DNA of 63,932 nt, filler included, from Sluysia triapertura (taxonomy: Eukaryota), in assembly GCA_046118255.1 (NCBI GenBank). It is 3 parts of 3 records of this genome, joined end to end, with 100 filler letters (N's around TTAATTAATTAA, not from the genome) between each part and the next. Parts side by side here need not be neighbours in the genome. Positions count along the whole stretch, not along the records: positions 1 to 31,462 come from JBJNIA010197374.1; positions 31,563 to 51,325 come from JBJNIA010051005.1; 1 more part is not named here. One strand, given 5' to 3'. The position numbers and the translations under genes are program-made. Positions 19,102 to 50,909 of the stretch are shown piece by piece. Under the pieces are notes generated by a model that worked only from the letters and a program-made list of their open reading frames with translations, was not told the DNA's origin and did not search any database. Numbering within the stretch: the stretch's first letter is position 1; each line of letters starts with the position of its first letter.

Positions 19102-20244
19102 CTAAAATTTAATATTTGAATTTATACCTTCAAATTTATCCTTAACAAACATATTCATATTATAGAACAACAAATTCGAATTATCCGGTTCGTTAGTTTT
19201 TATTTCTTCGCAAAGAATTAATTTGGAGTCCCATCTCGAATGGATTCTACTTGAAACCACAGGTGAATCCCATACAATTTCAACATCATCATGATAAAAT
19301 TGCATAGTAACTTTAGATAATAATTCAGATAGCTCCAATAATTGACCAATATATTTTGTAATTCTGGATGAATTATCGAGAATTTGGGATAAGCAATCCT
19401 GTTGACATATTCGATTTATCCATGATAATTTATAAAGCCATATTTCATTTAATTTTAGTTCATTTCACATTTGGATTGATAAAGTATCATATATGTCTAA
19501 TACATATTTTAGAATTTGTGAGTTTAAATAAACTGTCACCTCTTGACACGGTTTAACCATTCTGTCCTCTTTATATTTTAAACACGATTTCAGTTTAATG
19601 TTGGATCTAGACTCGGAGGATACTACATTTACTGACTTGTTATCTCTTATATGAGCTTTTTCGATTCCTTCTAAAGTTACTTTAACTTAACACGAAACAT
19701 TACTTTGAACATATGTTGGTAAAATTAACTGACATAAAGTTAAATTTGTAAAAGAGCTTTTACCAGGTACCGAATCTACACAAACGAATAAACTACATCT
19801 AAACTTAGTTTCTGGATATTTTTGCATATCATTGAAATCTTGTTGAATATTCAGATTGTGACTTTTTAACATTTCTAATAATAGACCTTCTTTCATTATA
19901 ATTTTACGGTAATCTGGGTTGTAAACATGATCAAGACTGTTTATTAATTCATGTATTTCTTTAATGTAACTTAAACATTGTGACAAGATTTCTTTTTGTT
20001 CATCATCTTCTTTAATCGTTGCCTTCTTTATCCTTTTCAATTCTTGTGAATAACACTCTGTATTTACTACAAGAGATCTATTTTCTATTATTTTTAATGA
20101 CAATTTTTGTTTCATTTGAGCTTTACGATAGCCAGATTCTGCTCCCAATACTTTCGAATATTTGTAGAGTGTAGCTACATTAGCATAGTTAATCATTGTT
20201 TCTGTAATTGAAGATTCGAAAACGTTATTTAAATTATTCGTCAT
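19102..20244 (-). pseudogene. 381-codon intronless ORF with two in-frame stops, unknown protein
   Basis: ORFs 19687-20244 and 19102-19338 are in the same frame; the intervening sequence is open except for TAA 19687-89 and TGA 19465-67. Confidence 0.7.
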
Positions 20245-20376
20245 GCCGTATAAAGTATATCTCTTTTTTAATTAAAAATTATACTTATTTTTATTTTTAG
20301 ATTCATGTTCATAAAATAGAGTTATTATTTGTCATCCAATCAAGCCTTTAATAAAGATAGACGAGAATAATAAGTC

Positions 20377-20514
20377 CTGGTTGGATGATGTGTAGAGCTC
20401 ACAGCTTTGACTACAAAACCATTACTAATGATGATTGACCATCATCAGTGTTGACACATTAATAAGAATCGTGATGCATAGTGTCAACACAGGTGATGGT
20501 ACAGACCAGTTTTT
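20377..20514. ncRNA. Candidate structured RNA element (multi-hairpin), copy A
   Basis: GTGTTGACAC/GTGTCAACAC stem extended by ACCATCA/TGATGGT; TGTAG..AGC/GCT..CTACA hairpin; closing CTGGT/ACCAG followed by T5. Confidence 0.35.
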
Positions 20515-20619
20515 GATATTAATGAAAATGTAAATGAAATGATTTAATAACTGATAATAATAATATTAATAATAATAATAATATTAATAATAATAATAAT
20601 AATACTGCTATTATTATTA

Positions 20620-21550
20620 TCAATAAAAGAAAAATTGTATAAATATATTAAAAAATATATTTTACACGATCTTTTATTTAAATCTTGATTATTTCTAACA
20701 TATAAAGATAAAAAATGAAATAACAGTTACTGATATTGTATGAAGGAGCAACGATAATGGGATATACGGTGCTCGAGTTATCGTTGCTGCTTCATTGTAT
20801 AAAATTGAATTCTTTAAAGTTGTATTAGATTTTGGTAAACTTGTTATAGAATTTTAACATGTTGAAATAAATTAAATGTGTTTGAAACTAAATTTCTGAG
20901 TAAAGATTGTTTTGAAAGAATTGGTAAATATAATTAATCTTTGAAGGCTTTATACTTGATCTGAGTAGCAAAATAAAATGGAGAATGTTAGAATAAGGTA
21001 TTCGATATTGATTGAAGTTTATAATTGAAAACAATGTTTAAGAATTGAAATATCGTGAAAAACAAAAGGCTTATTGAGAAGGTTGTAATTTATTGAATTT
21101 AAAAGGGTACTTACAATATAACTCTTTGTATATTGAGGATGTTATTATGCTATGCTTCGTGTGATTATTTTGTTTAGTGTTTTTAGTGTTGATGTTCTGT
21201 GTTAATGACGACTATGCATTGATGAATAGTGCATTTGAATTGTTGTACTTGATTCAAGGTGTGAAGCAGGTACTCCATATGTTTCGAGTAGTTTTATTGA
21301 TGTTGTGAAATAGTATTAAATGTATTTGTGGTTTATATGTTGTAAGTTTATGATTGTGGTTCGATTTAAGAATAAACTATTAAATGAATGTTATCGATTT
21401 ATAGATATTAATTGCCAAAATGTAGCGTAAGATGAAGTATTATTTCTAATGCGTTTATTGTTGGGTTATTGTGAATGTCGAGTTATGATTTTTGTGAAAT
21501 AGTTAATATAAATTGATAATGTTGAATATGATTGTGATTTGGATGTTGCA
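20620..21550 (-). mobile_element. Degraded LINE-like (RT) remnant ending near a (TTA)n tract
   Basis: FNTISQ...KLLETYGVP resembles the LINE RT motif AFDSI.H...L..YGVP; strong strand compositional bias; AT triplet tract at 20550-20610. Confidence 0.35.
20741..20794. mobile_element. 54-bp TG...CA mini-element with 17-bp TIRs and 5-bp TSD
   Basis: TGAAGGAGCAACGATAA / TTATCGTTGCTGCTTCA match 16 of 17; flanked by TTGTA at 20736-40 and 20795-99. Confidence 0.65.
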
Positions 21551-21639
21551 GAATTTTAATAAATTTTACATATGATAACTACTAACATATGTAAGTCCTG
21601 AATATTAGAATATAGCTATTAGAAATAATAAAACATGCA

Positions 21640-21830
21640 GAAACGAAAATAATACAATAATTTATGCACAGTACACAGTATAAAAAGATTCGCGATAGGT
21701 TACGCACAACTATATAGCCAGCTACCAGAAAATGTTAAATTACTGAAAGATTGCGAAATATTTAAAAAGACAATGTTCTCTATATTTCAGAAATATTATG
21801 ATGAATGATATAATCTAAGTGTATCTGAAT
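21640..21830 (+). mobile_element. L2/CR1-clade LINE 3' end fragment
   Basis: Shares gctaccaga(a/g)aatgttaaattactgaaagatt...aaatatttaaaaaga with 57400-57450; encodes LPENVKLLKD.EIFKK, like the L2 C-terminus. Confidence 0.6.
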
Positions 21831-48586: not shown

Positions 48587-48925
48587 TTAAGAACAAATTA
48601 TAAATAAATTCAAATGTTCGTTGATCAAAAAAATGTAATTTATTTTCAGTCTTGAGTTGTAAGCATAACGGGAATCTCTAAAGTTGTTGTGGAATTTAAC
48701 TTGGTCATTATTAATTTGTAGACTGATACTAATATCATTAAATTGTAAAGAACTTAATAGGTTGTTTAGACGTTCTATATATTGGTTTGTATATTCGTTT
48801 TTATCATTGCTGGATTTTAGTTCGGCGATATTATGAGAATAGCGGCACGAAGTTCCATATTTGATGCACATATTGAATCCAGCTACTTGAAATGGGCATT
48901 GTGCTAAGCATTTGTATACGCACAT
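48587..48925 (-). pseudogene. CCCH zinc-finger ORF (degenerate)
   Basis: YKCLAQCPFQVAGFNMCIKYGTSCRYSH has C-x9-C-x6-C-x3-H spacing with a YK lead-in and aromatic residues typical of TIS11-like fingers. Confidence 0.5.
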
Positions 48926-48990
48926 AGATTTAATACCATAACCTTTACTGAAGGTGGAGTCGGTAGTTGCATCATAATAGTGTTTATTGA

Positions 48991-49431
48991 TTATCTCGAC
49001 TCCTGTTCTTTTGTGATCGCAAGAATCGTATGTACAAGTTTTTTTGAAGCATTAAATTCCAGTTCGAAATTAACGTTTTCGCAAATTGTATTGAATACGC
49101 AAATTTTATTGAAGACATTAAAAAGATGAAACTTTAATACATTACAAGAATTATCCAAATTTTTGTATTTAAATTTTTGTGTCAGATCGAACACTGAAGA
49201 ATATGTATCCGTCTGATAGTAATACAATATATGCATACATTGAGGATGTTCATTACCGAATGTATCATAAAAATCAATCTTAAACTTTTTATCATTTAGT
49301 TTTATTTCGTATTTATATGGAGTCGAAACATTACCAGGTAATTGTTGTGATAGGTGTTTATCCATCAATAACCATAAGACTATTATAGATTTCCCAACAT
49401 CAACGTCTTCACATTATGTGTATTGCATCAT
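48991..49431 (-). pseudogene. Intronless Ras-superfamily small GTPase pseudogene
   Basis: In one frame: DVDVGKS (G1), DTFGNE (G3), LYYYQTD...VFDLT, VFNK (G4-like), EFNASK (G5-like); in-frame TAA at 49414-16. Confidence 0.7.
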
Positions 49432-49708
49432 AGTTAATACACATAACTTTACTTGATCTTTTACTCATTTTTTATTTAATAAATAAGCTAAAAATAATTG
49501 AATAAGATTAACTGTTTAAACGACGGCTATCTAATACTTTGTGTGCTTTATTTAAATTCTAATTTTTTAATCTCTCGAATTTTCAATTTATAACTTGTCG
49601 ATTTTTATTAAATAATTATTTGCCAATGATTACTAATTAATGAGAATTTTTTAACTTTATAATTTAATGAGTTATTAAATGTGTTATTTTTAGCTGATAT
49701 TATTAGTC

Positions 49709-49842
49709 AGCCAATGTATACAGTTATTGGTTAATCTGTTGTGCGAAAAAATGCACAACACCAAAACGCCAAGTAACTGTCAGCAGTCGACACTTCATAA
49801 GGTATGTTGAGTGTTTTAAATTAAACCGTCGACTGGTGACAG
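49709..49842. ncRNA. Candidate structured RNA element (multi-hairpin), copy B
   Basis: CTGTCAGCAGTCGAC/GTCGACTGGTGACAG (14 of 15 bp), TGTTGTGC/GCACAACA and AGCCAAT/ATTGGTT stems. Confidence 0.4.
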
Positions 49843-50909
49843 ATTGTTATTTAAAATTATAGTTATTTGCTGCAAACAATATTTATGTGATGACAATTAT
49901 AATTATGATAAATTTAATTTTGCTAATAAACGTAATTAAAATAATGATAATAATAATAAAAATTATAATAAAATAAATAACATAAAATAATAATAAAATA
50001 AAATAAAAGTAATAGTAATAATAATGATAAAATTAATTGTATAGAAATCTTTCGTAAACGTATTTCTTTTAATAAAAAATTCTTTTCTTTGGTTTCATTA
50101 ATTGATCTTATAATTATTTAGAACATAAATTAAATAAATAAAATTCTTTTACTATCTTTAAATGCTTTATAAAATATTTACTCTGGATCTTATCGATTGT
50201 CTTAAAAAGTACGTGTATCATCTTAACTAAAAATGTTAGAGAATGTTTACAATTTGATTATAATGTTTTAAGATGATTTTGAAATATGAATTTGGTGTCT
50301 TTCGATGATATTAAAGATTAAGTGCTTTTAAGGATTGTTAACCAGAGATGTTTTGGATTAATTCTAATCATGTATCTTTGATAATTCAAGATGTAAATTG
50401 TGACTCTAATGTTGTGAAATTCTGAGTTAAAATGTTTTACATGAAATTTAAAATGTACATTAATGGTTTGAACATAAGTATAGTTTTGATGTTATGAGTT
50501 TATGAATTTAATATGTTTGAAAAGTAAAAAGGTTTTAATGGATTTGCAGAAATATGATATAAAATGTAAGAATATGTAATATTTCATGTAACGTAGTAAA
50601 CTTGAATTTTAAGTGAAAGATTGGCCATCACAATCAAATCAGTTCGTGCACAATTTTAACCTTAAGTAGTATATTTTGTCCTACAAATGTCACTATTGTT
50701 CAACGATAATAATGATCAGTTTATAATTAATAATTATCTGGATTGTCGATAATTTTCTAAGCAATGCAATTGATTTCTTATTCTTTTTAATAATTAGTAG
50801 ATGTGTTATTCAAGTTTTTATTTGAAATAAATTTTCAATTTTTCGAATAATTAATTTAAAATTAAAATATCTTTTAATCTGATCACTTAATTAATTTATT
50901 TTATTTCAG

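Follow-up and report, generated by a model that had tools for sequence, protein, structure and literature searches.

Mobile units with variable coding cargo in Sluysia triapertura as probable giant Ty3/gypsy long terminal repeats

The genome sequence of Sluysia triapertura (assembly GCA_046118255.1), an AT-rich animal genome of 619 Mb in 263,945 contigs, raises the question of what kind of element carries a constant leader in front of different coding sequences. The 63,932-nt stretch of DNA analysed here, joined from parts of three records and referred to as the window, contains four minus-strand segments spread over two contigs, for which a first-pass annotation had described a recurrent module composed of the 3' end of a long interspersed nuclear element (LINE), an AT tract, hairpins and a different intronless coding block each time. 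The recurrent minus-strand module is real, while its LINE or Terminon nature was not borne out. Our preferred reading, held with good confidence, is that two of the units, A and B, match the long terminal repeats (LTRs) of a Ty3/gypsy element without its interior, and that translation of the cargo probably supplies the N-terminal portion of the first protein of this element. The observations that carry it are the ends of the units, the polypurine tract (PPT) and primer-binding site (PBS) adjoining them, the gag, protease (PR), reverse transcriptase (RT), RNase H (RH) and integrase (IN) regions found between such units, the variety of the cargo, the continuity of its frame and the depletion of stop codons.

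The units measure 2.2–3.2 kb overall and have the same layout, namely a non-coding head, an AT tract, hairpins, a variable cargo open reading frame (ORF) and a sharp end. The parts of units A and B are as follows.

19145..21587 (-): unit A, interpreted as a giant gypsy LTR whose start motif has decayed and whose 3' part is truncated at 19145 by a different repeat
20621..21587 (-): head of unit A, an A/C-rich non-coding stretch formerly annotated as 'LINE-like'; no Pfam match
20576..20620 (-): AT tract of unit A, (AAT)n/(TTA)n inside the LTR and common to copies
20441..20514 (-): hairpin 1 of unit A, a stem with a C.A mismatch
20330..20390 (-): hairpin 2 of unit A, with two inverted CCAAT boxes; z -1.9
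19145..20271 (-): cargo A ORF, ATG at 20244; mosaic
48287..50632 (-): unit B, read as a complete solo giant LTR, TGTGATGGCCAAT...ACCCCAAA
49709..49842 (-): hairpin cluster of unit B, with the same C.A-mismatch stem and CCAAT/ATTGG pair as unit A
49036..49410 (-): cargo B part 1, an uninterrupted RABL2-derived fragment (residues 28-152, 37% identity, E 6.6e-12)
48587..49035 (-): cargo B part 2, a degenerate CCCH zinc-finger-like piece; weak match (E 0.095 and 0.07-0.24)
48287..48540 (-): tail of unit B, in which the frame stays open toward the LTR end

Genome searches with 20300-21600 and 49650-50650 returned 4,582 and 3,127 candidates, respectively; 40 were scored per query, mostly at 75-90% identity, and many of these covered the segment, the AT tract and the hairpins together. 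Copies begin sharply at TGT(A/G)GTGGCCAAC, with upstream flanks that are unrelated save for short internal duplications, and the exact 13-mer TGTGGTGGCCAAC occurs 4,339 times in the genome versus 3 for the reversed control. The opposite end is equally defined: in searches with the far ends, a fixed stop was reached by 25/30 A-type and 22/30 B-type loci, conservation dropping after ...AAAACCCTAAA or ...AAACTCCAAA with unrelated DNA beyond; the termini of a unit are a TG start and an end in ...CCCTAAA, CTCCAAA or CCCCAAA. Sister copies of unit A continue into a common A tail, and unit B is flanked by ttgat and tcgat, a target-site duplication (TSD) with one mismatch (4/5). Because the cargo is mobilised together with its head, and the DNA bordering the pair on either side is unrelated between copies, the proposal of a LINE targeting sites upstream of pre-existing cassettes is refuted. 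The expected bias in orientation and cargo does hold among the copies, the cargo travelling with the head; 47/48 motif starts, selected from the first 100 listed, were C-rich, and in the 19 with sufficient downstream DNA the longest sense ORF exceeded the longest antisense ORF in 15 (Wilcoxon p 0.005).

The start and the end of these units are joined to the signals of a retrotransposon. A AGGGGGCTGA-type PPT stands immediately before the start in 51 cases in the genome (0 in the control), and the end motif is followed by TGGTGTCAG, a PBS, in 175 (5 in the control); TGGTGTCAGGAGT, presumably a tRNA-Leu primer site, was found right after one A end. The heads of units A and B resemble heads that stand after such a PPT: head A is 72-75% alike to three of them over stretches of 630-1,050 nt, head B is 88% alike to another (locus L042) over 521 nt, and A-type heads are present also in PBS-followed units. 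A whole element is represented by locus L295 (G000:C29277), in which 107-bp LTRs with the same termini, 93% alike, enclose a PBS, gag (DUF7041), a protease, a C-terminal remnant of the integrase and a PPT, the whole being bordered by an exact 5-bp TSD (tcttt). Contig C65850 carries a 2,831-bp LTR, a PBS, a 5,989-bp interior, a PPT and another giant LTR, which the end of the contig interrupts; the interior displays DUF7041, RVT_1, RT_RNaseH, Integrase_H2C2 and rve in gypsy order, and the order gag-PR-RT-RNase H-IN was seen both there and in contig C16859. The listed homologues of the RT are gypsy polyproteins, including tapeworm ones at 45-50% identity. Exact TSDs occur in L201, L210 and L213 as well as in L295. 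With PPT, PBS and gag-protease-RT-RNase H-integrase located between such units, they are therefore assigned as giant Ty3/gypsy LTRs, mostly solo. The earlier notion of a cargo-carrying retroelement system was thus right in kind, the class of the element being a different one.

The reading frame of the cargo continues across the LTR end. Among 58 unique PBS-bearing ends, 8 of which were left out as too short upstream, the longest open run upstream of the PBS lay in the TGG-TGT-CAG frame in 39/50 (p 1e-10), with a median of 66 codons versus 9 and 13 in the other frames; the last 99 nt before the PBS contained 23 stops in this frame versus 190 and 141. The same frame was the longest in 24/29 A-type ends without a PBS. 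Past the PBS, its first stop came at 627, 630 and 663 nt in three of five internal copies, and a fourth stayed open to 708 nt after one early stop, while C65850 was broken early. The 2-kb leader ahead of gag is itself poor in stops, crossing it taking 7, 9 and 16 frame switches versus 31-34 in shuffles. Where a second PBS-like copy is close by, the spacing is a multiple of 3 in 17/17 cases (27, 33, 54, 84 nt). Since the cargo frame crosses the LTR end and the PBS without closing and enters the interior, the cargo is likely an N-terminal extension of the first ORF.

What is kept in the cargo is the frame and not the protein. In four cargo ORFs, variants shared by copies gave an omega of 1.03 and 12 stops versus 30.5 expected (P 1e-4), single-copy variants gave 38 stops versus 37.6 expected, and the pol controls an omega of 0.13; stops are depleted at an omega near 1, and therefore the open frame is maintained while the amino acids are not. 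Cargo A, the 381-codon ORF of the first-pass annotation, agrees with this picture in that its frame is open over 16 copies, its two in-frame stops being specific to the window copy; over 19880-19151 in these 16 copies, columns with a stop as the commonest codon number 0 in the cargo A frame and 23 and 27 in the other frames.

The cargo is also variable. That of the window is carried by 9/29 A loci and 10/29 B loci, and the remaining loci have other shared cargoes, often mosaic; the 5' 390 nt of cargo A are common to copies whose middle part differs. No credible homologue of cargo A was found: Atlas matches were all under 0.9 (dynamin/G-domain lead), PDB matches only had E above 0.1, and comparison with 1.84 billion representatives gave a single match, to a repetitive protein with spurious domains. 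A search with the single copy of cargo B found nothing, and a profile of 8 B copies matched RABL2 proteins at E down to 7e-21. RABL2 as the genome query disclosed 151 matches of 374 candidates (150 scored), some of them to other small GTPases, and many of the matches are uninterrupted over residues 20-140 while some have stops. To judge from this similarity, cargo B is derived from the host gene RABL2. Among the 12 minus-strand frames examined with Pfam, Ras/Roc at 49.0-49.4k stood out and the other matches, that of the CCCH piece included, were weak.

The heads have a different character. Neither head A nor head B displays coding constraint in any frame (variants shared between copies; 74-86 copies for A), and for head C an omega of 0.65-1.5 came from only 19 copies. 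We infer that head A corresponds to U3. The pairing of hairpin 1 is kept across families though the sequence of its stem varies, and the CCAAT boxes of hairpin 2, which we take to match the NF-Y consensus, make it a predicted promoter. A DIRS-like internal copy of the end-start junction, suspected by eye in hairpin 2, was dropped because family B lacks it and the CCAAT boxes account for the motif.

Several results weigh against the assignment of the units as LTRs with a cargo fused to the element's protein. As to structure, the 3' end of the units is AAA and not CA, although TG...CA termini are described as usual and not universal in LTR retrotransposons (PMC12440569). In C65850 the heads of the paired giant LTRs agree at only about 70%, the cargoes of the two are dissimilar and the TSD is unreadable; C16859 is similar to C65850 and lacks its PBS. 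TSDs are scarce: an exact 4-bp TSD was found in 2/20 units (null 1.1%, p 0.02), a sample in which some rows are 3' LTRs or miscalled ends, a test based on the motif only gave 3/51 versus 2.0 by chance, which is not significant, and six full-length A-type copies with well-supported ends had none. Only 4/57 examined PBS-bearing ends run into the internal leader, many 3' LTRs come after internal regions that are truncated on their 5' side, and a short repeat of the LTR end lies 12-34 nt past the PBS in 40/55 ends (null 15%). As to the frame, B ends called by regular expression gave no signal (4/11), one emerging only when they were re-anchored on a conserved motif (65 stops versus 143 and 194 in 21 rows, among them one unrelated row and one locus counted twice). 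The 17 spacings between tandem PBS-like copies represent only 3-4 independent events. The frames of the four cargo ORFs were chosen from open reference copies. Last, an unbroken single frame from cargo to gag was found in no copy, so that the cargo-gag fusion is an inferred one.

The main rival shares the gypsy origin of the units and has them mobile alone: DNA consisting of the LTR alone (U3-cargo-U5, in some cases plus a copy of the PBS) would arise during reverse transcription and be inserted directly, its TG end being processed by the integrase and its AAA end by host repair. Lone units are indeed in large excess (4,339 exact starts versus 51 PPT-preceded ones, counted with different patterns), PBS remnants occur at their right ends, and this course of events would suit an end that is not CA, rare TSDs and dissimilar LTR pairs. 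We nevertheless consider it unlikely. In L295 the LTRs occur as a pair that shares these termini and is bordered by an exact TSD, TSDs are present at some lone units, a divergence of about 20% erodes short TSDs, and the PBS copies can be internalised parts of U5, in the form of tandem in-frame units ahead of the working PBS.

A second alternative accepts the giant gypsy LTR and assigns the open frame to RNA stability: it would allow escape from nonsense-mediated decay and end in the leader, gag being translated separately. The lack of an unbroken frame to gag and the first stops of the TGG frame at about 630-710 nt in four copies fit this proposal, which we regard as improbable given that stops are scarce over the entire 2-kb leader when successive frames are chained.

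Still less probable is a Pack-type cut-and-paste DNA transposon with Ginger-like TGT arms and gene fragments between inverted arms. The TGT start, an occasional 4-bp TSD and an inverted head downstream in locus L120 had suggested it, but an inverted terminal copy was found downstream in 0/60 oriented loci, the flanks of L120 mismatch with no TSD at its inverted head, and PPT, PBS and RT are directly linked to the units; nor was a second direct repeat found near the heads.

The LINE or Penelope/Terminon-like non-LTR element with a 3' cargo, for which strand skew, AT tract, co-oriented ORFs and an A end (AACCCTAA) that we take to resemble the complement of a telomere repeat could be cited, is the least credible reading, since the heads are non-coding, no RT or endonuclease match was obtained with Pfam in the 12 minus-strand frames, the segments are the 5' part of the unit and not its 3' end, the 5' start is fixed with no poly(A) or repeat tail, and the linked pol is of gypsy type, with RT followed by RNase H and integrase. 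An Rfam scan of the window gave no ribozyme or hammerhead and one chance match. Terminons, as described in PMC6431247, share co-oriented accessory ORFs and hairpins with the present units; the analogy drawn by the first-pass annotation fails because the units lack a Penelope-type RT, a hammerhead and a pattern of 5' truncation, and have one cargo block each in place of a string of ORFs. Two further candidates were set aside. A tRNA-derived core in a short LTR, as in the Helenus TRIM (PMC10886601), was discarded because ARAGORN finds no tRNA in the window. Helitrons were ruled out on their termini; those of a Helitron read TC...CTRR.

Returning to the Ty3/gypsy LTR, a mechanism can be proposed. 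The head would be U3, ending in the promoter with the CCAAT pair, and transcription would begin just ahead of the cargo, making the latter a long R region. Fragments of host mRNA packaged along with the element's RNA may be brought in by a switch of template during the first strand transfer; the captures would come to lie between U3 and a short U5 tail, and mosaics would result. Since ribosomes would have to pass the cargo before arriving at gag, captures that close the frame would be lost and those that leave it open would propagate. LTRs, frequently those of separate insertions, would then recombine and leave solo cassettes, many of them TSD-free; such exchange between separate insertions would account for the rare TSDs, the dissimilar LTR pairs and the few PBS ends that are linked to a leader. 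In its full form, in which the LTR of a gypsy lineage serves as a slot for exchangeable genes, with host mRNA pieces captured into an R region of 1.5-2 kb, kept only if frame-open and fused N-terminally to Gag(-Pol), this model is put forward tentatively, as a possibility that falls somewhat short of an even chance. If true, every solo LTR would amount to a complete cassette of promoter plus ORF, and LTRs that differ in cargo would pair on one element or insert alone, seeding thousands of chimeric cassettes in a single animal genome.

Some loci met in the course of the analysis have features of their own. In L295, L364, L366, L372 and L375 the element is internally deleted, gag and protease being fused to the C-terminal remnant of the integrase without an RT; the same deletion recurs in all five, which therefore spread as a non-autonomous form. 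The PBS copies at the lone right ends of L291, L310 and L316 are 18 nt long (TGGTGTCAG(A/G)AGTGGGAT), longer than the part of 13 nt shared by the PBS of elements with a leader, and may be a copy of the primer tRNA. L310 (G000:C14578), L305 (G000:C138127) and L300 contain, in order, a decayed gag-CCHC, a Monjiviricetes-type fusion protein and a protease, an arrangement that is Burro-like. Env-like ORFs stand after the PBS in these three loci. Those of L310 and L300 were judged to be flanking insertion targets and not parts of the element, because a repeat of the LTR end is located past the PBS in L310 and ahead of the env-like DNA in L300.

The rest of the window includes two more units and the repeat that truncates unit A.

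24965..27490 (-): unit C, of the same layout; relatives show the variant start TGTGGTGTCTCAAC, and the cargo is multi-copy
42945..44811 (-): unit D, a possible old, diverged unit; both ends uncertain, membership unconfirmed
18850..19145 (.): AT-rich palindromic repeat, unrelated and present in many copies, that starts with TGTTAAGG and truncates unit A

Unit C is a probable LTR of a related family; a PPT directly ahead of its start gave 0 matches, and neither C nor D was linked to a PPT or PBS. Membership of unit D is unconfirmed because it has only short matches elsewhere and no hairpin, none having been found at 44180-44320. That the four segments form one family did not survive, the window units showing no mutual alignment (tblastx, none at E 0.01) and same-strand blastn matches between units A-D all being <=32 nt. 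The strand bias reported for the segments was reproduced as a C-over-G skew at 20.7-21.6k and 44.4-44.7k, those at 27k and 50k falling below the cut-off (0.4 in 300-nt windows). The AT tracts are present as described, TATACAATT was confirmed at 20641 and 50043, with a third copy at 14492, and all three hairpin sites were recovered, at 20377-20514 (z -3.1), 49709-49842 (z -3.6) and 27170-27230 (z -2.3).

Further observations were made along the window. On the plus strand, 3983-18261 holds the exons of a large gene, presumably a CHD3/Mi-2-like chromatin remodeller as named from its motifs, whose C-terminal exons are not evident past 18261, just ahead of unit A. A separate small repeat (44877-45018) lies directly upstream of unit D. 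The region 59900-61400 is multi-copy and matches DNA from the cargo side of retrieved units, of which three have a PPT ahead of them; it is probably a further unit on the minus strand with a degraded start near 61334. In the third stretch an exact TGTGGTGGCCAAC start occurs at 51595-51607 (-), with no match to fetched loci, and about 110 nt on there is a sequence starting with CAGGGG that we take to be of hAT type. More A/C-skewed blocks are found at 23050-24000 (-), 36001-36300 and 63601-63900, with no or one match among the fetched loci; the block at 23k is like the internal leader in composition only. A tandem 116-nt duplication at 30294-30614 is also an inverted repeat, and a short ORF at 36819-37100 (+) resembles, by eye, a fragment of a retrotransposon gag.

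The element can be placed among known systems. It carries candidate CsRn1-like motifs. Yeast Ty1 is a copia-type element whose ORF enters the LTR by a few fixed codons only, whereas here 400-600 codons of exchangeable host-derived sequence lie in the LTR. Coding sequence inside an LTR is exemplified by mouse mammary tumour virus (MMTV), in which sag lies in U3. With Ty1 (PMC4974528) the shared feature is a PBS inside the first ORF, and with BARE-2 (PMC13317346) it is foreign sequence inside the LTR; MMTV and BARE-2 have one fixed gene and one promoter swap, respectively, and the present LTR is a slot of many interchangeable in-frame cargoes. Flatworm Ty3/gypsy elements of the CsRn1- and Saci2-like types (PMC12471100) share the TGT start, PBS, PPT and gag-PR-RT-RH-IN, and their short TSD is matched at some copies. 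The LTRs of the Saci2-like elements are 251-521 bp and end in ACA; those described here are 2.3-3.2 kb, end in AAA and have a variable coding cargo that is read through the PBS. LTR-mediated retrocopies, or pseudo-LTR retrotransposons (Tan et al. 2016, PMC5131818; maize Bs1), are likewise mosaic, partial pieces of host mRNA in sense orientation, for which capture by template switching was proposed and which are copied again. They sit between two LTRs, and here the cargo is part of the LTR itself, surviving in solo LTRs. Burro, the giant gypsy element of planarians (PMC6431247), is also of the flatworm type, with host-like accessory domains in one long polyprotein; its extra domains are internal, its Gag is N-terminal and an env is present, in contrast with sequence that lies in the LTR ahead of gag and has no amino-acid constraint.

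Gypsy elements, LTR-mediated capture, a PBS in the first ORF, foreign LTR sequence and giant planarian elements with host-like domains are therefore already known. No description was found, in a literature search of incomplete coverage, of an LTR that acts as a slot for interchangeable coding sequence joined in frame to the internal ORF. The analysis names the mover and the anatomy of a genome-wide class of cassettes with a fixed leader and variable cargo, and locates gene capture at an unusual site, within the LTR itself and in the frame of the ORF that belongs to the element. Annotation tools that require TG...CA ends and matching LTRs would miss such elements and call their cargoes host genes. 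Solo LTRs, a common by-product, would leave chimeric ORFs that come with a promoter. The cargo also provides a natural example of selection that acts on the openness of a frame and not on the encoded protein, a testable source of new genes.

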